From: an uncultured Candidatus Rokubacteria bacterium
GTDB taxonomy: Bacteria; Methylomirabilota; Methylomirabilia; Rokubacteriales; CSP1-6
Assembly (NCBI GenBank): GCA_963762145.1
Contig: CAVXJS010000010.1
Coordinates: 160,001 to 224,000 of the forward strand
Direction: 5' to 3'
Length of the DNA: 64,000 nt
Positions 1 to 12,267 of the stretch are shown piece by piece. The notes beneath the pieces are model-generated. The model worked only from the letters and a program-made list of their open reading frames with translations. It made no database searches and was not told where the DNA came from. The position numbers and the translations under genes were made by a program. The number at the start of each line of letters is the position of its first letter. Within the stretch, counting starts at the first letter, position 1.

Positions 1-469
1 TGCGGGGCGGCCACCGGCTCTCGGTAGACCTCCAGCACTTGCCCCCCGAGATTGAGGATCCAGTAGTCGGCGATCCCGGCCCGCGCATAGAGGCTGGCCT
101 TCTCCCTCCGGTCGAACTCCAGGCTCGAGTCGGCCACCTCGACGATGAGGACAGGGTGCGACGGATGGACGCGGCTGTGGTCTCGTCGGCTGCCCGGGCA
201 CGACCGCGATGTCGGGCTCCGGCTCGGAATCCTCGTCGAGCGCGATGGGACTGTGTGTCACTGAACCGTCCAGCCGGCGCCAAAGGCCTGGCGCAGCGCG
301 TCCTCGGTGAGGCCGACAGCGGTGAATGGGGACCACCTTGAGGTTCGCGGACGAGCAGGGCGCCACCGACCAGCTCGAGGCGTTCGCCGGGACGGAAGGC
401 GCCCAGGTCAATCAGCCGTTCGTACTCGAGCCGGGTCCAGTGTTTGGTGCGTACCGAGGAAACCGCCAT
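1..469 (-). CDS. Uma2 (DUF820) family putative restriction endonuclease; 3'-truncated by the window edge and frameshifted
   Basis: Manual minus-strand translation gives MAVSSVRTKHWTRLEYERLIDLGAFRPGERLELVGG...SEPEPDIAVV...VLIVEVADSSLEFDRREKASLYARAGIADYWILNL, the typical Uma2 motifs. The frame breaks near 190-325, so it is absent from the ORF track. Confidence 0.8.
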   Translation of the reverse strand, partial: MAVSSVRTKHWTRLEYERLIDLGAFRPGERLELVGGALLVREPQGGPHSPLSASPRTRCARPLAPAGRFSDTQSHRARRGFRAGARHRGRARAADETTAASIRRTLSSSSRWPTRAWSSTGGRRPASMRGPGSPTTGSSISGGKCWRSTESRWPPR

Positions 470-501
470 GCCCTCCAAGCTAGCCCTGCGGTGTCCACCC
501 C

Positions 502-520
502 GTCAACGTCCACCCGGCGA
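502..520. repeat. 19-bp direct repeat, copy 1 (GTCAACGTCCACCCGGCGA)
   Basis: Exact match to 1283-1301. On the minus strand it ends in TTGAC, a -35-like hexamer upstream of Uma2. Confidence 0.9.
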
Positions 521-556
521 TACGCCAGGTCGACGGATGCATGTATTGTCGGCGGC

Positions 557-979
557 TCAGCTCGGCAGTGAGGCCAATGGCAGCACGTGTTGACGAAGGG
601 GGCCTGACACGAGGGCCTCGAAGCGGCGATCTCCGGTGACGAGCTGGCAGCCCGAGAGAATCGCGAGGCTTAGGTAGCAGCCGTCGTAGACCGTACAGTC
701 GAGCTGGAGTGCCAGCTCCAGAGCTGAGGACGCCAGCTCTCGGGTCGGGTAGGTCGTGAACGGAGCGCTCACGATTCCGTCCAGGGCTGCCCGAGCCTCG
801 CTCATCGTGATCTGACGACGCCGAAGCTTCTGCCACAGTGCGTTGCCGGCTTCCAAGTAGACGAGATCTGGCACGATAAAGCGATGGTCGCTTTCCAGGA
901 GGCGTACCGCCTGAGGGGTGAGGTCCTCCGGAACAAACCACTTGATCGGGACGTTCGCGTCGAGGACGTAGCGGCTCAT
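557..979 (-). CDS. vapC: PIN-domain toxin (VapC/FitB family)
   Basis: MSRYVLDANV..E..NAL..YDGCYLSLA..LVTGD carries the PIN acidic residues; 4-bp overlap with the antitoxin stop. Confidence 0.9.
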   Translation of the reverse strand: MSRYVLDANVPIKWFVPEDLTPQAVRLLESDHRFIVPDLVYLEAGNALWQKLRRRQITMSEARAALDGIVSAPFTTYPTRELASSALELALQLDCTVYDGCYLSLAILSGCQLVTGDRRFEALVSGPLRQHVLPLASLPS

Positions 980-1209
980 CGCGAGCGGCGATCGGACGCG
1001 ATGAGCTCTGCACTGTCCGAGTGCGTACGCCTGGCCAGACTTTTCCGTAGTTTCGCGGCCAAGGTGCGGGTACCCGACCAATCGGTGTTCGCAGCTTCCT
1101 CCAGGATGCTCTTGAGCTCGGCCTGTAGGCTACGGTCGTTGCGACGGGCCCGGGCCCTGAGCCTCTCGAGGGTCGCCTGGGATAGATCCCGGATATGGAT
1201 GGCGGGCAT
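976..1209 (-). CDS. FitA-like ribbon-helix-helix antitoxin
   Basis: MPAIHIRDLSQATLERLRARARRNDRSLQAELKSILEEAA...DSAELIASDR; lies directly upstream of the PIN toxin. Confidence 0.88.
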   Translation of the reverse strand: MPAIHIRDLSQATLERLRARARRNDRSLQAELKSILEEAANTDWSGTRTLAAKLRKSLARRTHSDSAELIASDRRSR

Positions 1210-1282
1210 GATTCGACGCGCCTCCTGGTTCGTGTGGTATCGAAATGCTACCACACAAGAGTGTGCCACGTGCACTCATCCT

Positions 1283-1301
1283 GTCAACGTCCACCCGGCG
1301 A
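1283..1301. repeat. 19-bp direct repeat, copy 2; overlaps the recombinase stop codon and a TTGACA -35 box of the TA operon
   Basis: Exact match to 502-520. Confidence 0.9.
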
Positions 1302-2198
1302 GACACCCAGCAGCTCTACCGCCTCTCGCTGCCGCTCCGGGCTCACGTGCGTGTAGATCTCGGTGGTCGCCAGCGACTCGTGCCCCAGCAGCTTCTGGAT
1401 CACGCGGAGGTCGGCCCGGCGGTTCAGTAGCTCGGTGGCGAACGTGTGACGGAAGAGGTGCGGGTGCAGGCGCCGGCCGATGCGGCGGCTCACGCGCTTG
1501 CAGAGCAGCACCATCACCTGCTTGGTGATGCGCCCGCGCCAGCTCACGAAGAGCGGATGCTGGGGGCCGAGGCCGGGCCGGGAGGCCAGGTAGGCGTCGA
1601 GGGCGGCCTGGGCGGTGGGGTGCAGCGGCACCACGCGGTCCTTGTTGCCCTTGCCGTGCACCATCAGGCTGGGGGCCTCGCGCGAGTAGTCGCCGACGTC
1701 GGCGGCCATCACCTCGCCGCGGCGCAGGCCGCCGTAGGCCAGCAGGGCCAGGATGGCGCGGTCGCGCGGCTTGCGCTCGCCGGCCACGATCTGCTCGACC
1801 TGGCTCCAGTCGAGAACGCGGGGCAGGCGGCGCTCGCGGCGAGGCACGGAGACGCCGATCATCGGGCTGCGCTGGAGATGGCGGCGCTCCACCAGCCAGC
1901 CGGCGAAGCGGTTCAGCTCGACGAGGCGGCGGCGCACCGTGTTGACGCTCCAGCGGCGGGTGGCCATGTGGGCCTGGTAGTCGCGGATGAGCGTGGTGGT
2001 GAAGGTGCGGAGGGTGGGGGCGCGCCGCCCCTCACCCTGCCCTCTCCCCAGAGGGGAGAGGGTTCTGGAGCGGCGGCGACGGGCGAACTCCAGGAAGAGG
2101 CCGAAGTCGCTGCGGTAGGACTTGATGGTCATCGGGCGGAGCCGCTTCTCCACCGCGCAGTGCTGAAGGAAGCGCGCGTGCAGGGCGGCCAGCGTCAT
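1284..2198 (-). CDS. XerC/XerD-like tyrosine recombinase
   Basis: Catalytic motifs GLRRGE, GKGNKDR, HLFRH, LLGH and TEIYTH are present with an N-terminal SAM-like domain. It contains an in-frame repeat-derived peptide TLSPLGRGQGEG. Confidence 0.93.
   Translation of the reverse strand: MTLAALHARFLQHCAVEKRLRPMTIKSYRSDFGLFLEFARRRRSRTLSPLGRGQGEGRRAPTLRTFTTTLIRDYQAHMATRRWSVNTVRRRLVELNRFAGWLVERRHLQRSPMIGVSVPRRERRLPRVLDWSQVEQIVAGERKPRDRAILALLAYGGLRRGEVMAADVGDYSREAPSLMVHGKGNKDRVVPLHPTAQAALDAYLASRPGLGPQHPLFVSWRGRITKQVMVLLCKRVSRRIGRRLHPHLFRHTFATELLNRRADLRVIQKLLGHESLATTEIYTHVSPERQREAVELLGVSPGGR
2028..2062 (+). repeat. 35-bp palindromic element CCCCTCACCC-TG-CCCTCTCCCC-N3-GGGGAGAGGG (boxC-like), intragenic copy
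   Basis: Matches the consensus of about 15 copies in the window. Confidence 0.95.
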
Positions 2199-2218
2199 GA
2201 CGTGGCCGGAGCCTAGGG

Positions 2219-3386
2219 TGTCCAGACCCGGAATGGTGTAGACACCTTGGCCACCCCAGAGTGCGACATGCGGTCAGGCCCGAGCGGCGCCCCAGAAGAG
2301 CGCGGCGGGGGTGCGGCCACGGACCCGGTAGCCTTGATGGGGCCGCTCGTGATTGTAGGACTGCATGAACCCATCGAGGCTTCGTTGGAGCGCCGTTCGA
2401 CTCGTGAAGTAGCGCCGACGGAAGGCCACGCGCCAATGCTCCTGCAAGATCGTGCCTTGCAGCCGCTCGACGAACCCGTTCGTCCACGCGTGCCGCGGCT
2501 TCGTTCGGGTGTGGCGGAGGCCGAGCGTCCGGCAGGCGTCATCGAACGCCCCCTTGAACTCGGGGCCGCCGTCGGTGAGCAGGCGGCGCAGCCGCCAGCC
2601 CGCCCGGCGATACAGGGGCACCAAGATGCGACGCACGAAGTGAGCGGCCGCCTCGGCGTTGTGGGCTGGCAGCAACCACGCGACGCCGTAGGAGCACGCG
2701 GCGTCGCAGGCCGTGATCTGCCAGACCTTGCCCACGCCTTTGAGCTGCCCAATGTAGAAGGTGTCCACGCACACCAGCTCGCCGGGCTCGCGGGCGGCGA
2801 CGTGACGCGGCTGGCCGTGCTGCGCCTGCCACAGGGTGCTGCGCGTCCGCTCGGTCAGCAACCCCGCCGTCTGCAGGGCGCGGTGCTCGAGCACGGTCAG
2901 CCGCTGCCGGCGGGTCGCCAGCCCGGCCCGCCGCAGGGCACGCTGCACCGTGCTGGGTGCCACGCGCAGCTGCCAGCGATGGCGCAGGTAAGCGGCGATC
3001 CGACTCGCGCCCCACGTCGCCGCGCTGACCGCCACGCTCAGCAGCAGCCGCTCCGTCTCCGGGGCCAGCTGCACCGGTCGGCCGGGGCGGGCCCGATGCC
3101 GCCGCGGATGCACCCCGTCCTGGCCGTAGCGCTCCAACCGCTGACGCCAGCGGTAGAACAGGGCGCGGGAGATCCCCGCCTCCCGGCAGGCCCGACTGAC
3201 ATTGCCCAACTCCTCCGCCCGCTGGATGACATGCAGCCGCAGTCCGTGTACTTTCTCCTCGAGGGTCATCGGTCGATCCTCCCAAAGTGGTTCCCCTGGC
3301 AGGGGGTGGTTCACTCTGGGAACGATAGGCCAGATGGCCCTCACTGTTTCTGGTCACAAGTGTCAACACTAATCCGGCTCAGGACA
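2219..3386 (-). mobile_element. IS481-family insertion sequence
   Basis: TGT...ACA ends. 27-bp imperfect TIRs TGTCCAGACCCGGAATGGTGTAGACAC and TGTCCTGAGCCGGATTAGTGTTGACAC (22/27 match). 8-bp direct repeat GCCTAGGG at 2211-2218 and 3387-3394 contains the CTAG core typical of IS481 targets. Confidence 0.92.
2274..3269 (-). CDS. IS481-family DDE transposase
   Basis: N-terminal HTH (NVSRACREAGISRALFYRW) and rve core (VCVDTF, LTDGGPEF, TNGFVERL, YNHERPHQG). Confidence 0.93.
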   Translation of the reverse strand: MTLEEKVHGLRLHVIQRAEELGNVSRACREAGISRALFYRWRQRLERYGQDGVHPRRHRARPGRPVQLAPETERLLLSVAVSAATWGASRIAAYLRHRWQLRVAPSTVQRALRRAGLATRRQRLTVLEHRALQTAGLLTERTRSTLWQAQHGQPRHVAAREPGELVCVDTFYIGQLKGVGKVWQITACDAACSYGVAWLLPAHNAEAAAHFVRRILVPLYRRAGWRLRRLLTDGGPEFKGAFDDACRTLGLRHTRTKPRHAWTNGFVERLQGTILQEHWRVAFRRRYFTSRTALQRSLDGFMQSYNHERPHQGYRVRGRTPAALFWGAARA

Positions 3387-3414
3387 GCCTAGGGCGCGGC
3401 CGGCGGCCCGTCAA
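3386..3414 (-). promoter_or_regulatory. sigma70-like promoter TTGACG-N17-TAGGCT, probably the original recombinase promoter
   Basis: Near-consensus hexamers with a 17-bp spacer; the -10 lies in the IS target duplication. Confidence 0.6.
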
Positions 3415-3532
3415 TGTCCCGAAACGGAGACGGGGTCCGCCGCGGGTTCGCCCGCGCAACGGGGCGGATCGGGGTATGATCCGCGCCAGACTGAGCTCGG
3501 ATGATCGCGGTTCTCCAGAGGAGGAGACTCCC

Positions 3533-3925
3533 ATGGCGAAGATCACTCAGATCACCGTCACCGCTCAATCCCGGCCGGGTGTGCTGGCCAAGGTGGCGCG
3601 AGCCCTGGCCGACGCGGGCGTGAACATCACCGCCATGTGCGCCTCGGAGTCGACGGGGCGCGCCAAGCTCCGGCTGGTGGTCAGCGATCCGGAGCGGGCC
3701 AAGCAGGCCCTGGCGGCCGCCCGGATCCGGTGCGGGGAAGAACCGGCGCTGCTCCTCTCGGTCGAGGACCGCCCCGGCACCCTGGCCACCCTCGCCTCGC
3801 GGCTGGCGGCGGCCAAGATCAATATCAAGTGCGCGTACGCGACGACCGTGATTGCCGGCGGGGGGCCATGCCACGTCGTGGTGGCGGTGGCCAACGCCGA
3901 CAAGGCCGAGAAGGCGCTGAGGTAG
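3533..3925 (+). CDS. Tandem ACT-domain protein
   Basis: SRPGVLAKVARALADAGVNI and DRPGTLATLASRLAAAKINI ACT repeats; GGAGGAG RBS. Confidence 0.88.
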   Translation: MAKITQITVTAQSRPGVLAKVARALADAGVNITAMCASESTGRAKLRLVVSDPERAKQALAAARIRCGEEPALLLSVEDRPGTLATLASRLAAAKINIKCAYATTVIAGGGPCHVVVAVANADKAEKALR

Positions 3926-3931
3926 CCCCGG

Positions 3932-5182
3932 GTGAAGACCCTCGTGCTCGGCGGCGGCGTGGTGGGCGTGACCACCGCCTATTTCCTGGCCCGGGCCGGC
4001 GACGAGGTGACGATCGTCGAGGCGAACGACGCGCTCGGTCTCGAGGCGAGTGCCGGCAACGCCGGGATCATCGCGCCCGGGCATTCCTTCGCGTGGGCCT
4101 CGCCGCGCGCGCCCGCGATGCTGCTGCGCTCGCTGCGGGGCGACGAGACCGCGATCCGGCTGCGGCTCACGCCGGACCCGCATCTCTACACGTGGGGGCT
4201 ACGGTTCCTCCGCGAGTGCGTCCCCGCGCGGGCCCGGCGCAACACGCTCGTCAAGCTGCGCCTCTGCCAGTACAGCCAGCGCGTGATGAACGAGCTGGTG
4301 CAGGCGGAGCGGCTCGAGTACCACGCGGTGGCGAGGGGCGCGCTCTACCTCTATCGCGACCCGGCCGAGCTCGAGGCCGGGATCAAGAAGATGAAGCTGC
4401 TCGCCGAGCACGGCCAGAAGCAGGAGATCCTCGAGGCGAGCCGGGTGGCCGGTCTCGATCCGGCCTTCGCGCCGGTCCAGGGGAAGATCGCCGGGGCGAT
4501 CCGGGATCTCGGCGACTCGAGCGGTGATTCGCGCCTGTTCACCGAGGGCCTGGGCGCGCTCTGCCGCGCCCGGCTCGGGGTGACCGTCAAGCTCGGCTCG
4601 CGCGTCACCGCGCTCCGGGCCAGCGCCGACCGGATCGAGGGCGTCGTCACCGGCGACGGCGTCTTGACCGCCGATCGCTACGTGCTGGCGCTCGGCGTCG
4701 GGAGCCCGCTGGTGGCGCGCACCGCGGGGGTGAGCCTGCCGATCTATCCCGCCAAGGGCTATTCCTCGACGTTTCCGCTGAAGGCGGGCGGCCTGGCCCC
4801 CACCATTCCCGGCGTGGACGAGCAGTGGCTGGTCGGCTGGTCGCGGCTCGGCGATCGGCTGCGGTTGACCTCCACCGCCGAGTTCGCGGGCTACGACTGG
4901 GGCTGGACCCCCCGCGACTTCGGCAACATCCTGCGCTTCACCCGCGACATCTTTCCCGACGCGGCGGACTACGGCCGCGGGGAGTACCGTGCGTGCCTGC
5001 GGCCGATGACGCCCGACGGTCCGCCCATCCTGGGCCTCGGGCGTCATCGCAACCTGTTCTTCAATTGCGGCCACGGGCATATGGGGTGGACGATGGCGTG
5101 CGGCACCGCGCGCATCGTCGCCGATCTGATGAGCGGGCGCATGCCCGAGGTGGATCTGGAGGGGCTCGGCGCGCGACGGTGA
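3932..5182 (+). CDS. dadA: D-amino acid dehydrogenase (FAD-dependent)
   Basis: GGGVVG FAD motif, ASAGNAG, PAKGYS, LRPMTPDG, GHGHMGWTMACG. Confidence 0.85.
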   Translation: MKTLVLGGGVVGVTTAYFLARAGDEVTIVEANDALGLEASAGNAGIIAPGHSFAWASPRAPAMLLRSLRGDETAIRLRLTPDPHLYTWGLRFLRECVPARARRNTLVKLRLCQYSQRVMNELVQAERLEYHAVARGALYLYRDPAELEAGIKKMKLLAEHGQKQEILEASRVAGLDPAFAPVQGKIAGAIRDLGDSSGDSRLFTEGLGALCRARLGVTVKLGSRVTALRASADRIEGVVTGDGVLTADRYVLALGVGSPLVARTAGVSLPIYPAKGYSSTFPLKAGGLAPTIPGVDEQWLVGWSRLGDRLRLTSTAEFAGYDWGWTPRDFGNILRFTRDIFPDAADYGRGEYRACLRPMTPDGPPILGLGRHRNLFFNCGHGHMGWTMACGTARIVADLMSGRMPEVDLEGLGARR

Positions 5183-5196
5183 GCGAGCGGGCTGGG

Positions 5197-5231
5197 CCCC
5201 TCACCCTGCCCTCTCCCCGGAGGGGAGAGGG
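5197..5231 (+). repeat. 35-bp palindromic element
   Basis: Consensus match, intergenic. Confidence 0.95.
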
Positions 5232-5311
5232 TGGTCGGGGGGTCGGGTTCGCCATCGGTGAGCCGCCGGCCCAACCTTGTCCGGATGCCTCTGGCCGAGT
5301 ACGCTCCACCC

Positions 5312-6751: not shown

Positions 6752-7761
6752 TGCGAATCGGATTCGGGGTCAACTTCATGCCCAGCGCGCCCGTGCTCGA
6801 GGTGGTGGAATGGGCGAAGGCGGTCGAGCGGCACGGCTACGACCTGCTCGGCATCGCCGACTCGCAATCGATCAGCCGTGACGTGTACGTGACGCTCGGC
6901 CACTGCGCGACCGCCACCGAGCGCATCCGGTTCGGCTCGCGGGTGATCACCCCGGTGACGCGCCATCCGGCGGTCGCGGCGTCGGCGGCGGCGACGCTCG
7001 AGGAGCTGGCGCCGGGGCGCACGATGATCGGCATCGGCTCGGGGGACAGCGCCGCCTACAACATCGGCGCCAAGGCGGCGTCCCTCGCGGAGCTCCGGGA
7101 GTATGCGCTGGCGATCCGCGGCCTGATGACCACGGGGCGGGCGGAGTACCACGGGCGCACCGCGACCCTGACGTGGTCGCGCGCGCGGGTGCCCATCTAT
7201 CTCGCCGCGTCGGGTCCGAAGACGCTCCGACTGGCCGGCCAGATCGCCGACGGGGCGGTGGTCCGCACCGGGCTCACCCCGGAGATCGTGCGCGACTCGA
7301 TCGCCCAGGTGAAGGCCGGGGCGGAGGAGGCCGGGCGCGACCCCGCCGAGATCGATCTCTGGTGGTGGCCGGACGTCAACGTGGGGGAGAGCTATACGGA
7401 GGCGGTGGAGGAGATCAAGACCTCGCTCGCCATGGCGGGCAACCACCTGACGCGATTCACGGCCGAGGGCAAGCACGTGCCGCCGGACCTCCTGCCGAAG
7501 ATGAAGATCCTGGCCGAGCGCTACGTGTTCGGCGAGCACGCCCGGCCGGGCAGCGCCAACTGCCGCCTCATCACCGAGCTCGGGCTGGTCGACTACCTCG
7601 CCGACCGCTTCGCCATCGTGGGGACCCCGGCCGAGTGCGTGAAGAAGCTGGAGCGCGCGATCGAGGCGGGGGCGCGGCAGTTCTGGATGAGCATTCACTT
7701 CGACGACAAGTTCCGGCTGCTCCGGGACTTCGCCGAGCGGGTCATGCCCGCGTTCCGCTGA
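6751..7761 (+). CDS. LLM-class flavin/F420-dependent oxidoreductase (Mer-like)
   Basis: VTRHPAVAAS, IGIGSGDS, LAASGPKTLRLAGQIADG. Confidence 0.88.
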   Translation: MRIGFGVNFMPSAPVLEVVEWAKAVERHGYDLLGIADSQSISRDVYVTLGHCATATERIRFGSRVITPVTRHPAVAASAAATLEELAPGRTMIGIGSGDSAAYNIGAKAASLAELREYALAIRGLMTTGRAEYHGRTATLTWSRARVPIYLAASGPKTLRLAGQIADGAVVRTGLTPEIVRDSIAQVKAGAEEAGRDPAEIDLWWWPDVNVGESYTEAVEEIKTSLAMAGNHLTRFTAEGKHVPPDLLPKMKILAERYVFGEHARPGSANCRLITELGLVDYLADRFAIVGTPAECVKKLERAIEAGARQFWMSIHFDDKFRLLRDFAERVMPAFR

Positions 7762-7777
7762 AAGGGGAGACAACGCC

Positions 7778-8674
7778 ATGGTTCGGATCGCAGGGGTGCA
7801 GTTCGTCGGGCACGCCGACAAGGCCGTCAACATCGAGATCGCCGAGCGGATGGTGCGCCAGGCGGCCGCGCGGGGCGCCAGGATCGCGTGTCTGCCCGAG
7901 CTCTTCAACACGATGTACTTCTGCGTGGAGACGAAACCGGAGTACTTCGACTGGGCGGAGCCGGTGCCCGGCCCGACCACCGAGCGCATGGGCGCGCTGG
8001 CGCGGGAGCTGGGCATCGTCCTGATCGCGCCGGTGTTCGAGCGGGCGCCCGACGGGCGCTACTTCAACACCGCGGCGGTGCTGGGACCCGACGGCCGGAT
8101 GATCGGCAAGTACCGGAAGTCGAGCATTCCCTTCATGGACGCGGCGCAGAGCTCGGAGCCGCGCGGCAACGAGAAGTTCTACTTCACGCCGGGAGATCTC
8201 GGCTTCCCCACCTTCGACACGCCGTTCGCCCGCATCGGCATCCTCATCTGCTACGACCGCCACTTCCCCGAGGCGGCGCGGGTGCTGGGCCTCGGCGGAG
8301 CGGAGATCCTGTTCGTGCCCACCGCCACCACGCGCATGACCCGATACCTCTGGGACGTGGAGCTCCGGGCCCACGCCATCGCCAACGTCTTCTACGTCTG
8401 CGGGGTCAACAAGGTCGGCGTGGACGTCGGCGGCTCCCGGCGCGATCACCACGGCAACAGCATGATCCTGAGCCCGAAGGGCGAGGTGATGGCCGAGGCC
8501 AGCGCCACCGAGGACGACATCGCGCTGGCCGACGTGGACCTGAAGGCGCTGCCGTCGCTGCGCAAGCTCTGGGGCTACTACCGGGATCGCCGCCCCGACA
8601 AGTACGCGCCCGTCGTCGAGGAGCCGTCGGGCACCATCGACCCGGCCGCGGCGCACCCGGTCGCAACCCGCTGA
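7778..8674 (+). CDS. Nitrilase-family carbon-nitrogen hydrolase (beta-ureidopropionase/N-carbamoylase-like)
   Basis: E-K-C triad: PELF, KYRK, ICYDRHFPE. Confidence 0.9.
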   Translation: MVRIAGVQFVGHADKAVNIEIAERMVRQAAARGARIACLPELFNTMYFCVETKPEYFDWAEPVPGPTTERMGALARELGIVLIAPVFERAPDGRYFNTAAVLGPDGRMIGKYRKSSIPFMDAAQSSEPRGNEKFYFTPGDLGFPTFDTPFARIGILICYDRHFPEAARVLGLGGAEILFVPTATTRMTRYLWDVELRAHAIANVFYVCGVNKVGVDVGGSRRDHHGNSMILSPKGEVMAEASATEDDIALADVDLKALPSLRKLWGYYRDRRPDKYAPVVEEPSGTIDPAAAHPVATR

Positions 8675-8682
8675 GCGATTCT

Positions 8683-8782
8683 CCCTCTCCCCTCTGGGGA
8701 GAGGGCAGGGTGAGGGGCGGGCGCCCGCGACGGGACCTTGAACCTCCCCCTCACCCCGACCCTCTCCCCAGAGGGGAGAGGG
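8683..8782. repeat. Two palindromic elements in opposite orientation (8683-8717 minus, 8747-8782 plus) between convergent operons
   Basis: Both match the consensus. Confidence 0.93.
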
Positions 8783-8807
8783 AGTGTGGCGAAGCCGCGC
8801 GCTCGCC

Positions 8808-9812
8808 TCAGCGGCGGGTCTGGGGGCTCAGGAGGGGATAGAGGAGGTCGACGGCGATGTTGATGGTGACGTACACCGCCGTCGTGACGAGCGTGAAGGC
8901 CAGGAGCGCCGGGTAGTCCTGGTTCTCCACCGCGGTCACCGCGTAGAGGCCGAGCCCCGGCCAGGAGAAGATCGTCTCGGTCACCACCACGCCGCCGATG
9001 AGCTGGCCGAGCTGGAGCCCGACGATGGTCAGGATGGGGACGGAGGCGTTGCGCAGCGCGTGCTTGAGCACGACGCGCGCCTCGCCGATCCCCTTGGCCC
9101 GCGCGGTGCGCAGGTAGTCCTCGTGGAGCACGTCGAGGAGGGCCGCCCGGGTCACGCGCGTGATCATGGCCAGCGAGATCACGCTGAGGATGACCGAGGG
9201 CAGGATCAGGTGGCGCAGAGCGTCGGCGAGGACGCGCCACTGGCCCGCGACGGCCGCGTCGACGACGAGCATGCCCGTCACCACGGGGGGCGGCGTCAGG
9301 CCGACGGTGAGGCGTCCGCCCGCGGGCAGGAGGTCGAGCTGCCGGTAGAAGACGAACACCGCCATCAGGCCGAGCCAGAACACCGGCATGGAGCCGAGGA
9401 ACACCGAGGCGGGCGTGATGAGCCGGTCCGGCCAGCGGCCGGCCCACGCCGCCGAGACCACGCCGAGCGGGATGCCGACGAGGGCGCTGATCGCGATGGC
9501 GGCCAGCGCCAGCTCCATCGACGCGGGCCAGTACTTCTTGAGGTCGTCGATGACGGGCCGCCGGTTCACGATGGAGTTGCCGAAGTCACCGCCGGCGACG
9601 GCGCGCATGTAGTAGAGGTAGCGGACCCACAGCGGCCGGTCGAGGCCGAGGCGCGCGCGGGCGGCGGCCACCATCTCCGGGGTCGCGTCTCCGCCCCCGG
9701 CGGCCACGAACGCCGGGTCGCCGGGCAGGTACTGGGTGAGCGCGAACACCGACGCCGAGATGGCGGCGAGCAGCACCACCAGGAGCGGCAGGCGCCGGAG
9801 GACGAGCAGCAC
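8808..9812 (-). CDS. Peptide/nickel ABC permease (DppB/OppB family)
   Basis: LPGDPA, RTARAKG, ETIFSWPGLG. Confidence 0.92.
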   Translation of the reverse strand: MLLVLRRLPLLVVLLAAISASVFALTQYLPGDPAFVAAGGGDATPEMVAAARARLGLDRPLWVRYLYYMRAVAGGDFGNSIVNRRPVIDDLKKYWPASMELALAAIAISALVGIPLGVVSAAWAGRWPDRLITPASVFLGSMPVFWLGLMAVFVFYRQLDLLPAGGRLTVGLTPPPVVTGMLVVDAAVAGQWRVLADALRHLILPSVILSVISLAMITRVTRAALLDVLHEDYLRTARAKGIGEARVVLKHALRNASVPILTIVGLQLGQLIGGVVVTETIFSWPGLGLYAVTAVENQDYPALLAFTLVTTAVYVTINIAVDLLYPLLSPQTRR

Positions 9813-9813
9813 G

Positions 9814-10653
9814 TCAGGGCCTCCCGCCCACGCGGCTCTGCGGATCGAGCACGTCGCGCACGCGCTCGCCCAGCACGTTGAAGGCCAGCACGGTGATGAA
9901 GATGGCGAGACCGGGGAACGTCGCGTACCAGGGATAGTCGAGCAGGTACTTGCGGCCGAGCGTCACCATGGCGCCCCACTCGGGCAGCGGCGGCTGCGCG
10001 CCCACTCCCAGGAAGGACAGCGCGGCGAGGAGCAGGATGGCGAGGCTCACGTCGATGGTGGCCTTGACGAGCACCGGCGACAGGCAGTTCGGCAGCAGGT
10101 GGAAGAGCAGGATGCGCCACTGCCGCTGGCCCAGCGCCCGGGCGGTGAGGATGAACTCCTTCTCGCGCTGCACGAGGACCTGGCCGCGCATGAGCCGCGC
10201 GTACTGCGCCCACCAGGTGATGACGAGGGCGATGGCGCAGTTGACCATCCCGCGGCCCATCACGGTGGCGAAGGCCAGCGCCCAGACGATCTGGGGAAAC
10301 GCCAGGAAGAACTCGGTCACCCGCATCAGCCACTCGTCGGCGCCCCGGCCCGCCGCGCCGATCAGGAGCCCCGCGAGGCTTCCGATCGCGGCGGCGGTCG
10401 CGACGAGCAGGACCGCGGCGGCCAGGGTCGGACGCGCGCCGTGGACCACCCGCGCCCAGAGGTCGCGCCCGTTCTCGTCGGTGCCGAAGGGGTGGGCGAG
10501 GCTCGGGGGCTTGAGCCGGGCGAGAAAGTCGATCGCGTTGGGATCCCGCCGGGTGAACGCGCTCGGGACGGCCATCATGGCCGCGAGGACGAGCAGGACC
10601 ACGACCGAGCCGGCGGCGAACGGGCCGCCGCGAAGGACACGGGGCAGGCGCAT
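9814..10653 (-). CDS. Peptide/nickel ABC permease (DppC/OppC family)
   Basis: HPFGTDENGRD, HLLPN, LSFLGVG...PEWG. Confidence 0.92.
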   Translation of the reverse strand: MRLPRVLRGGPFAAGSVVVLLVLAAMMAVPSAFTRRDPNAIDFLARLKPPSLAHPFGTDENGRDLWARVVHGARPTLAAAVLLVATAAAIGSLAGLLIGAAGRGADEWLMRVTEFFLAFPQIVWALAFATVMGRGMVNCAIALVITWWAQYARLMRGQVLVQREKEFILTARALGQRQWRILLFHLLPNCLSPVLVKATIDVSLAILLLAALSFLGVGAQPPLPEWGAMVTLGRKYLLDYPWYATFPGLAIFITVLAFNVLGERVRDVLDPQSRVGGRP

Positions 10654-10659
10654 GGATGT

Positions 10660-10690
10660 GGGCGGCGCCCCCGGCGGGGAGGCGCCGCCC
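10660..10690. other. GC-rich stem-loop between the SBP and permease genes (possible mRNA stabiliser)
   Basis: GGGCGGCGCC...GGCGCCGCCC, a perfect 10-bp inverted repeat. Confidence 0.55.
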
Positions 10691-10699
10691 CGACGCGGC

Positions 10700-12267
10700 T
10701 CAGCGCTCGCGGAACATGTCCCAGTAGCGGTACGAGATGCGGTCGCCCTCGTAGACGAAGCCCTTCACGTCCTTCCGGGTGATGATCTTGTCGACGATGC
10801 GGCCGTTGACCACCACCGCGGCGTCCTTCCAGAGGAGCTCCGCGGCCTGGCGGAGCTGCCGCTGCTCGCGGGCCTGATCGAGGGACACCATCGAGTCGTT
10901 GACGAGCCGGTCGTACTCGGGGTTCGCGTAGTAGGTGAAGTTCCGGCCGCCCTTCGTGGGAAACGCATCGGAGTGGTACATGGAGAACAGGAAGTCGTAG
11001 GGCGTGGGGATGAACATCGGCCGGAAGTAGCCGAACATGTGCACGGCGGTGCCGGGGTCGCGGGCGGCGCCCCAGTCGGTGGCGCGCTTGACCAGAGCCG
11101 GCCACGTGTCGTCGAAGAGCTCGAGCCCGATGTTGAGCTTGGACAGCTCCGCCTGGAAGATCTCGAAGATGGCGCGCTTGTCGGCGTCGCCCTTCTGCGA
11201 CTGGTACCGGAGCTGGAAGCCCCCGTTGGGGAAGCCCGCCTCGGCGAGGAGCTGCTTGGCCCGCGCGGGGTCGTACGGGTAGGGGTTCTCCATCTTCCAG
11301 TCCTCCCGAGCAGCGGGGTGTAGAGCGGGCCGGGGTTGGCCGCGTTGCCCGTGATGGCGTTGAACGCCTCCTGGTTCCAGAGGTGATGCAGGGCCTGGCG
11401 CACGCGGAGGTCCTTCGTGGGGCCGGCCTGCGTGTTGAGGAACGTCACCATCTGCGTCGTGCCGGCCTTCTCGTGCACGGTGAGGGCGGCGTTGCGCTTG
11501 AGCGCGGGCAGCGCGTCCTTGGTCACGTTCTCCGCGATGTCGAGCTCGCCCTTCTCGATCATCAGCCGCTGGGTCTCCGGCTCGTAGATGTGCCGGAGGT
11601 TCAGGGTGGCGAACTTGTTCGCCGGCCAGCCCCGCCAGTACTGGGGGTTTCTCTTCGCCACGTGGATGATGTTGGGCTCCCACCGCTCGAGCGTGTACGG
11701 GCCCGTGCCCGCGGTGTGGTCGCGCAGCCAGTTCTCGGCGTTGTCCCCGCCCTTGTCGTTGCCGCGCACGGCGGTGGGGCTGACGATCAGCAAGAAGCGC
11801 AGGCCCGCGAGGAAGGCGTTGTTGGGCTTGTCCAGGTGGAACACGATCGTCGTCGGCTTCGGCGTCTCCACCTTGACGATCGGCTTGACGTAGAGCGAGG
11901 CGGCCTTCTTGAAGGCCTGGGCCCGCTCCACCGAGAACTTGACCGCGGCCGCGTCGAACGGGGTCCCGTCGTTGAACTTCACCCCGCTGCGCAGCGTGAA
12001 CGTCCAGGTCTTGCCGTCGGGCGACATCTGCCACGCGGTCGCCAGCACCGGGCGGAGCCCGTTGATGTCGTCGTTCAGGTCGACGAGCGACTCGTAGAAG
12101 TTGTTGAGGGTCCACCACAGGCTGTCGAGCCCGCCCGCGTGAGGATCGTAGGTGCCGAGCGCGCTGAACTTGCCGACGTTCAGCGTGTTGTCCTGGGCCG
12201 GCGCCGGTGCCGGGAGGACGGCGGAGATGACGGCGACGGCGAGCAGCGCGAGCAGCCGGAGAGTCAT
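10700..12267 (-). CDS. Family-5 ABC substrate-binding protein; apparent frameshift near 11310
   Basis: Signal peptide MTLRLLALLAVAV...AQ, TWTFTLRSGVKFNDG and GTGPY; the C-terminal half (YDPARAKQLLAEAG) is in another frame. Confidence 0.85.

Follow-up and report, generated by a model that had tools for sequence, protein, structure and literature searches.

Short exact repeats beside a tyrosine recombinase gene raise the question of whether they are sites on which the enzyme acts or sequences kept for another purpose. We addressed this question for a locus at the left end of a 64,000-nt stretch (the window) from an uncultured Candidatus Rokubacteria bacterium, which spans positions 160,001 to 224,000 of contig CAVXJS010000010.1 (contig C10) in the 6.26-Mb, 25-contig assembly GCA_963762145.1 (genome G000, completeness 88%). 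On the minus strand of the window the order is site A, an IS481-family insertion sequence (IS), a Xer-like tyrosine recombinase gene, site B, an antitoxin gene, a vapC toxin gene, site C and a Uma2-family gene, where sites A, B and C are related short sequences ending in a -35 box. The original prediction took the locus for an integron-like array in which the ~780-bp toxin-antitoxin (TA) unit is an excisable cassette. The gene order, the exact 19-mer at sites B and C and the same layout at site A were all confirmed from the sequence and from family scans, and the prediction that related -35-bearing sites precede each unit was borne out. The cassette interpretation fared less well: we consider it likely that the locus consists of tandem recombinase-led units under a promoter of the recA/comM type, with the inner recombinase reduced to a stump and the whole locus in decay.

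A motif upstream of recA, comM and Uma2 genes

Within the window, where 0.38 occurrences of GGACRTTGACRGG would be expected, there are three, one at each of sites A, B and C. The more general motif GTMTC-N7-GGACRTTGAC has six occurrences in the 6.26-Mb genome, compared with ~0.02 expected from base composition; three of these are the copies in the window, and the other three precede recA, a ComM/YifB-type gene (comM) and a second Uma2 gene. Loosening the pattern to GTNTN-N7-NGNCRTTGAC added only one genome match, which overlaps the start of an open reading frame (ORF). Across 41 genomes (G000 and 40 relatives) we found 48 matches to the strict motif in 23 genomes, with a distribution by family of 21 of 24 in f1, 0 of 13 in f4, 0 of 1 in both f2 and f3 and 1 of 1 in f5, while a reversed-pattern control gave no match in any of the 41. 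We fetched 30 motif loci and scanned 29 downstream ORFs against Pfam, the remaining locus being cut short ahead of any ORF. The families found directly 3' of the motif were RecA (10), Uma2 (9) and ComM-type Mg-chelatase (3), with the remainder comprising one LAGLIDADG protein, one sub-threshold TauD match and five ORFs without a family. The motif is also present in genomes in which the recombinase was not detected. This placement before recA, comM and Uma2 genes, with or without a recombinase, points to a predicted promoter-plus-operator of a small recA/comM/Uma2 regulon that is separate from LexA.

The original prediction had linked the motif to the recombinase and had named, as an outcome that would count against it, a common promoter or operator motif unlinked to that gene. 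The latter describes the generic motif, whose genome-wide copies lie at recA, comM and Uma2, and whose presence in 21 of 24 family genomes compares with recombinase orthologues (92-95% identity) in 4 of 20 other genus genomes, two of them cut by a contig end and one frameshifted; a fifth genus genome carries a 42% paralogue.

Alignment of 11 recA upstream regions showed GTATC, GGACATTGACA and CACACT to be invariant and the 7-nt spacer to be free, followed by a second, proximal promoter (TTGACT...TATCAT) and then by a conserved AACTTGTTGAR box. More generally, the motif lies at a fixed position relative to the -35 and -10 before orthologous genes across species, with unconstrained flanks. In other f1 genera, recA is preceded by variants of the motif (at most 3 substitutions, TTGAC intact) with a TAGAAT -10 at 10 of 11 loci, and in family f4 the motif is found at 0 of 16 recA loci, 15 of which carry a CTCATCTTCTGTTGAC-like sequence over the -35. 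Promoters of lexA across the order exhibit a different element, the palindrome CTCAAC-N4-GTTGAS, in 23 of 24 anchored loci, and the motif is not there; we regard this palindrome as a candidate LexA box of the lineage, judged from sequence. The f4 recA element CTCATCTTCTGTTGAC resembles it, whereas the f1 motif does not. We also considered the motif itself as a LexA box and ruled this out, as the lexA promoters of the lineage carry the palindrome and no strict motif. Where it occurs, the lexA palindrome sits between the -35 and -10, behind a T-run (e.g., contig C19:278230-278290 of G000, locus L004).

A regulator other than LexA would then bind the upstream element GTMTC-N7-GGAC, and from the gene set and by analogy with the mycobacterial recA P1/P2 promoters and the Deinococcus radiation/desiccation response (RDR) regulon we infer DNA damage or recombination stress as the inducing signal. 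The mycobacterial motif differs in sequence and position from the one described here. The likeness lies in the arrangement: as with PafBC at recA P1 beside a LexA-controlled P2, there are two recA promoters, one of which carries a lineage motif common to a small repair and recombination set, and the other, as at the mycobacterial P2, is associated with a LexA-type element. For the mycobacterial gene, excerpts of one study describe a pafBC mutant in which separate promoter motifs of P1 and P2 were tested (PMC5656591). Unlike the PafBC case, the regulon here is tiny, includes Uma2 nucleases, the recombinase and the TA genes, was recognised from sequence, and comes with no WYL protein found. The RDR regulon, as described in excerpts of PMC1978522, is a non-LexA regulon including recA, with a motif (RDRM) found by comparative genomics and the repressor DdrO; RDRM is a 17-bp palindrome before ~20 operons, among them that of its own regulator gene (PMC1978522). 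Unlike RDRM, the motif here is non-palindromic and fused to the -35, and no motif-preceded regulator gene was found.

As far as the excerpts of the literature that we consulted extend, no lineage-specific recA/comM signal for Rokubacteria/Methylomirabilota turned up; the present motif, which differs from the LexA box, is a predicted signal of this kind for an uncultured phylum of soil bacteria. The recurrence of Uma2 (DUF820) nucleases, whose function is unknown, in a recA/comM regulon across many genomes additionally provides a lead to their role.

Several features of the recA genes themselves were seen along the way. The recA ORF of G000 (contig C9:537357-538292; 415-1350 of locus L021) encodes 312 aa, without the RecA_C match seen in 348-349-aa orthologues, and could be a C-terminal truncation or a frameshift. 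Among recA loci of the order, the RecA Pfam match ends at profile position 172-203 in 21 genomes, and 19 of these 21 genes have an open frame of 350-837 aa (mostly ~700), as expected for an intein-bearing recA. The motif match at locus L025 precedes a LAGLIDADG-type ORF.

Site C and the 3' end of the recombinase gene

The features of the locus, in window coordinates, are as follows.

3410-3431, minus strand: site A, motif copy GTCTCCGTTTCGGGACATTGAC, with -35 TTGACG, a 17-nt spacer and -10 TAGGCT at 3386-3391
~2213-3392, minus strand: IS481-family element, with transposase ORF 2274-3269 (or from 3344), Pfam rve/HTH
1284-2198, minus strand: Phage_integrase/Xer-like tyrosine recombinase, 304 aa (Pfam Phage_integrase, 5.8e-31)
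1283-1304, minus strand: site B, motif copy GTCTCGCCGGGTGGACGTTGAC, with -10 CACACT at 1260-1265 after a 16-nt spacer
1232-1256, minus strand: perfect 8-bp inverted repeat GTGTGGTA-N9-TACCACAC, directly 3' of the site B -10
976-1209, minus strand: FitA-like ribbon-helix-helix (RHH) antitoxin, 77 aa (Pfam PF22513, 2.5e-12)
557-979, minus strand: PIN-domain VapC toxin, 140 aa (Pfam PF01850, 2.7e-13)
502-526, minus strand: site C, comprising motif copy GTATCGCCGGGTGGACGTTGAC (502-523) plus a few bases, together a 25-nt recombinase stump
1-469, minus strand: 5' part of the Uma2a pseudogene, which continues past the left edge of the window

Sites B and C share the 19-mer TCGCCGGGTGGACGTTGAC exactly (1283-1301 and 502-520, minus strand). 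Allowing up to 3 mismatches, it has two matches in the window against 0.06 expected, a count reached in 0 of 100 shuffles, and the repeat extends to 27 of 31 identical nt at a spacing of 781 nt. The recombinase stop codon TGA (1284-1286) sits within the TTGAC of site B, which consists of the last six recombinase codons plus the stop and doubles as the -35/operator of the TA promoter; a recombinase 3' end with the site B sequence was found in all recombinase orthologues. At site C, the -10 TAGCTT (477-482) follows an 18-nt spacer and the Uma2a ATG lies at 467-469, in a leaderless layout. The predicted -10-like hexamers 16-18 nt after the -35 are thus present, with spacers of 17 (A), 16 (B) and 18 nt (C). 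A search for the 19-mer at 2 mismatches in 121 family genomes returned mostly unrelated GC-rich sequence, and among the 29 loci from it that we examined, Uma2 lay beside the site only at G001 and the recombinase at none.

When sites are compared across relatives, the terminal similarity to the recombinase 3' end preceding them forms a series of 19, 25, 26, 27, 31, 34, 43, 46, 52, 110, 143, 286 and 916 nt, in which site C of the window is the 25-nt member and 916 nt represents the full recombinase. G002 retains the last 40 recombinase codons, and in several genomes Uma2a is preceded solely by a short recombinase 3' piece. In metagenome locus L225, a 27-nt exact match to recombinase codons 217-226 lies between the VapC stop and site C (exact matches of at least 15 nt arose in 0 of 2000 shuffles) and is followed directly by the last 31 recombinase nt, with CTGCTGGGT preceding site C; the main difference between the window and L225 at this flank is a further ~25-nt deletion in the window. 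Locus L236 carries three collinear recombinase fragments (codons 78, 213 and 273) before its secondary site, and L219 a remnant of codons 264-289 after its cargo. Such internal fragments at second sites suggest that each cargo once had its own recombinase. On these alignments we read site C as the remaining 3' end of a second recombinase gene that was otherwise deleted, retained because it would supply the -35/operator of the Uma2a promoter, so that the 19-mer would be the common 3' end of two recombinase genes and not a pair of crossover products. The original prediction that a site donates the -35 and the cassette brings its own -10 therefore holds in part: site B does give the TA module its -35, while site C is a recombinase stump and not cassette-borne.

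An alternative reading of this junction was discarded. It took the 10 nt left of site C (tcgacctggc) for the adjoining codons of the recombinase and assumed that one illegitimate, homology-facilitated event had brought in the TA module, with its joint in a motif of the G013 type; the 10 nt instead align with the L225 TA flank and second-recombinase remnant.

Site A belongs to the same scheme. Copies of it precede every recombinase orthologue examined (G015, G005, G013, G011, L221, L226, L233, L234 and L236), and the orthologous promoters of G015, G005 and G013 have no IS. Disregarding the IS, site A lies directly 5' of the recombinase as TTGACG-N17-TAGGCT-N11-ATG, a layout shared by G015, G005, G013, G011 and several metagenome loci, and a contig of soil run X9 contains the IS-less joint 2209->3386. 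The orthologues thus indicate that site A is the recombinase's own promoter, cut off in G000 by an IS481 inserted at the -10 region, which parts site A from the gene. This element has imperfect terminal inverted repeats of ~35 bp, a CTAG target duplication, three genome copies at 99.7-100% identity and a transposase scoring 224.1 bits with the NCBIfam IS481 model (cut-off 224). Uma2a, compared with its G015 orthologue, has three indels and an in-frame stop and is a pseudogene. With an IS481 in the recombinase promoter and a Uma2a pseudogene, the locus is decaying in this genome; relatives, too, often have a truncated or frameshifted recombinase in arrays that persist.

The recombinase aligns to XerD (1a0p, E 1.9e-31) with the catalytic R, K, H-x-x-R, H and Y conserved, and scores below cut-off with both the XerC model (209.6, cut-off 335) and the XerD model (186.2, cut-off 329.6); elsewhere the genome encodes a 348-bit XerD and a 300-bit paralogue. 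By these profile comparisons it is best described as an accessory Xer-like gene rather than IntI. A related-locus search with the recombinase retrieved only generic Xer homologues from other phyla (27-40% identity), the context of which was uninformative. A REP-like palindrome (CCCTCACCCTGCCCTCTCCCC-N-GAGGGGAGAGGG) lies in frame in the recombinase N-terminal domain at 2025-2062, is also present there in orthologues and recurs at 5209-5246; the genome holds 70 strict and 342 loose copies of it, and in soil runs the contig depth over the palindrome exceeds that of its flanks 10-60-fold.

The gene content after the recombinase varies between relatives, as had been anticipated. Using the recombinase 3' end plus site as the search pattern, we retrieved the same five species genomes and 23 metagenome loci. 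G015 has the same backbone as the window and consists of recombinase, one site, Uma2a, Uma2b and MNT with no TA, while G013 has recombinase, site B, TA, a site with a different spacer, another Uma2 and MNT. The G013 TA region is 80% identical to the window in DNA, with VapC 84% identical. Among the 23 metagenome loci, the recombinase TTGAC is followed by Uma2-type genes or promoters of several classes in 16, by the TA type of the window in L225 (antitoxin 100%, VapC 97% identical), by the G013 TA type in L234, by MNT with or without HEPN in two and by another module with an RHH-like ORF in three. A search for VapC relatives in species-representative genomes found G013 only, and close TA relatives were seen only beside this recombinase (window, G013, L225 and L234). 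The antitoxin and VapC ORFs overlap by 4 nt, and the order of RHH antitoxin and PIN toxin fits type II VapBC/FitAB modules; the inverted repeat GTGTGGTA-N9-TACCACAC, kept in the G013 and L225 TA copies, is probably the operator of the RHH antitoxin. L234 (metagenome contig WNFD01014612.1, 833-2531) has three co-oriented motif copies in series, in the order motif-Uma2, site A-recombinase, site B-TA, and a 37-codon Uma2 N-terminal fragment abuts its site A.

In the explanation that we favour, a lineage-specific promoter-plus-operator would consist of GTMTC-N7-GGAC fused to a perfect -35 (RTTGAC) and of a weak -10 that lies 16-18 nt beyond it; a start codon usually comes 6-11 nt later, in a leaderless layout. 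This signal would define a very small regulon in this Rokubacteria/Methylomirabilota family, comprising recA (through its distal promoter), comM and Uma2-family nucleases, into which a genus-specific accessory island would be plugged. Each unit of the island would consist of promoter A, the Xer-like recombinase, promoter B within its last six codons and stop, and cargo. Such units would be stacked head to tail, in the window as recombinase-VapBC and then recombinase-Uma2a-Uma2b-MNT-HEPN, with the downstream recombinase whittled away until its last ~25 nt were left as site C. Stacking may have come about by integration next to a resident copy or by duplication.

Competing explanations for the repeated sites

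Varying cargo beside a recombinase also fits the original integron-like proposal, in which cassettes that complete a promoter (TA, Uma2, MNT-HEPN and others) enter or leave at the 3' end of the recombinase gene through recognition of the 22-bp sites by the Xer-like enzyme. The recombinase retains all catalytic residues, the variable genes of relatives begin exactly after its TTGAC, TA-less forms (G015 and L222) exist beside occupied ones, the cargo of four loci precedes a short copy, 19-31 nt long, of the recombinase-3' site, and the confinement of the closely related TA modules to this recombinase agrees with such linkage. Between the window and L225, moreover, the TA genes are more alike (few differences per 60 nt) than the recombinase genes (90.5% over 421 nt), which suggests exchange near site B. 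Yet the same motif precedes recA and comM in genomes without a detected recombinase, the second sites in L225, L236 and L219 carry collinear internal recombinase fragments, repeat lengths are continuous with no fixed length or junction position, the G013 arrangement exists without duplication, and arrays outlast their frequently truncated or frameshifted recombinase. The variable loci were also retrieved with the recombinase 3' end as bait, so their linkage to the gene arises partly by construction. Counting further against it, there is neither an attC-like hairpin nor an IntI, as the original prediction itself had noted: DNA folds of A, B and C (minus strand) and of B and C (plus strand) gave z-scores of -1.63 to +0.17 and no common hairpin, and the recombinase reaches 80.2 bits with the integron-integrase model TIGR02249 (cut-off 265), over residues 239-287 only, and 57 with NF011946 (cut-off 435). 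The weak dyad noted originally is present as the sole symmetry of the 22-mer (GTC...GAC, 3-4 bp), although the inverted arms of a dif-type site are not, and repeat analysis of the sites reported no inverted repeat. Contigs from 4 soil runs (4 studies) contain no B-C joint and no circle joint; contigs drop rare variants, so that they are uninformative on excision. The excisable ~780-bp cassette is mostly unsupported, and we regard the integron-like proposal as quite doubtful. About equally doubtful is a proposal that each recombinase-plus-cargo unit is a miniature integrative element using the regulon promoter as its attachment site, whereby the recombinase, co-induced with recA and comM, would insert units at GTMTC-N7-GGACRTTGAC and its last codons would hand the -35/operator on downstream; if true, it would be a cassette system unrelated to integrons, inducible by damage and targeted to promoters. 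The island showed no flanking att repeats.

Alternatively, with no dedicated enzyme involved, deletion, duplication and re-insertion by RecA or through microhomology might have used the 22-37-nt promoter/recombinase-3' segments as short stretches of homology and so have shuffled modules at promoter boundaries, the TA module arriving by homology-anchored illegitimate recombination. In line with this, breaks in homology between island variants often fall at or close to motif copies, B and C share 34 of 37 nt in L225, and the regulon itself includes recA and comM. The endpoints of other rearrangements are scattered, as in a precise loss of the Uma2 ORF in L226 and recombinase deletions that begin just past the site A -35 in G017, L220, L224 and L232. 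However, RecA usually requires homologies as long as or longer than 22-37 nt to recombine efficiently, breakpoints by promoters are equally expected from selection for kept expression, and the internal recombinase fragments are explained no better than by stacking and decay; we hold such shuffling to be unlikely, if worth keeping in mind. Far less credible is a motif that has no regulatory meaning and merely represents the usual strong housekeeping promoter of the lineage. Its -35 is the sigma-70 consensus, canonically spaced from a TANNNT- or CANNNT-like -10, but only 6-7 copies exist in 6.3 Mb even with a relaxed pattern, GTMTC and GGAC are invariant 5' of the -35 around a variable 7-nt spacer, the lexA and recA-proximal promoters lack the motif, and the genes behind it form a narrow recurrent set of recA, comM and Uma2.

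Several observations weigh against the tandem recombinase-led units that we prefer. Promoter function is read from conservation and layout, and a generic sigma-70 promoter and terminator scan of window positions 1-3600 returned 0 promoters and 0 terminators, because the -10 hexamers of sites A, B and C agree with TATAAT at only 3 of 6 positions. A search of G000, which is 88% complete, for a regulator of the PafBC type gave no match to the WYL domain (PF13280). No internal recombinase fragment was found before the second site in L228, G013 or the window, for which the stump reading draws on homology with L225 or on analogy, and the second site of G013, with its different spacer, may be a Uma2 promoter in its own right. 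Stumps are shortest (19-31 nt) at the four secondary sites with a recombinase gene still in front of them, which a fixed-size duplication could also yield. Finally, most of the relatives are fragmented metagenome-assembled genomes (MAGs). The unpublished genomes G055, G078 and G130 support none of the conclusions drawn here.

Known systems and the surroundings of the island

The island resembles integrons in having a tyrosine recombinase beside a position of varying, small, co-oriented modules that include TA genes. Compared with an array of mostly promoterless cassettes, the genes after the recombinase do differ between genomes, but the -10 comes with each unit and the secondary sites are read as what remains of recombinase genes. 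Unlike in integrons, the enzyme is not IntI, no attC-like fold is present, every unit has its own promoter, the repeats are predicted recombinase stumps, and the variable position lies at the recombinase 3' end rather than upstream of its 5' end. A second point of comparison is provided by the pdif modules of Acinetobacter, which excerpts of three papers describe as having 28-bp XerC/XerD sites and often TA genes (PMC13141974, PMC6449649, PMC7399989). As far as those excerpts go, both systems involve a Xer-family recombinase and small shuffled modules that are often TA; unlike pdif, with its dyad XerC-6-XerD sites and housekeeping XerCD, the present locus is chromosomal and has no dyad sites and an accessory paralogue. 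Checked directly for a pdif-type site (~28 bp, inverted 11-bp arms, 6-8-bp spacer), the 22-mer showed no such structure.

Tandem accretion and decay of integrase-led genomic islets is a general phenomenon, and the locus is like such islets in its head-to-tail units and in its inner integrases cut to 3' remnants of varying length. It differs in that the units are tiny (recombinase plus 1-4 genes) and that the stump would also serve the next gene as promoter/operator. A short exact repeat by a tyrosine recombinase can therefore mimic an att or cassette site and yet be a promoter-retained gene stump, which calls for caution in mobile-element annotation. The island itself, with its Xer-like recombinase, VapBC, Uma2, MNT-HEPN and IS481, is ordinary accessory DNA.

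We sought the limits of the island by comparing its right flank, where an ACT-domain gene and a dadA-like gene (window 3533-5182) follow, with that of relatives, and neither a boundary nor an outer repeat was definable. The contexts of these two genes differ among relatives, and the DNA flanking dadA in G001, G005 and G020 maps to contig C9 of G000, which points to a rearrangement or to an assembly join in the MAG near 3.4-3.9 kb. An Rfam scan of window positions 1-4000 gave nothing at E<=0.1.

To the left of the window, Uma2a continues and is followed by an intact Uma2b, MNT and HEPN. Further observations concern C10:155000-159500 (~7000-11500 of locus L139), a stretch of lower-GC (57-63%) DNA that contains a frameshifted reverse-transcriptase-like ORF, DUF45-like and type I restriction (HsdR-like) fragments and an MNT-HEPN pair, and that resembles a defence island in decay; the names of the genes were read from ORF translations, and only MNT-HEPN was scanned, with weak matches below cut-off. 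At the other end of the locus, the ~50 nt just upstream of site A (window 3446-3495), ending in GGGGTATGATCC, have 93-96% matches at unrelated positions in four other genus genomes and may be a small conserved promoter or repeat.

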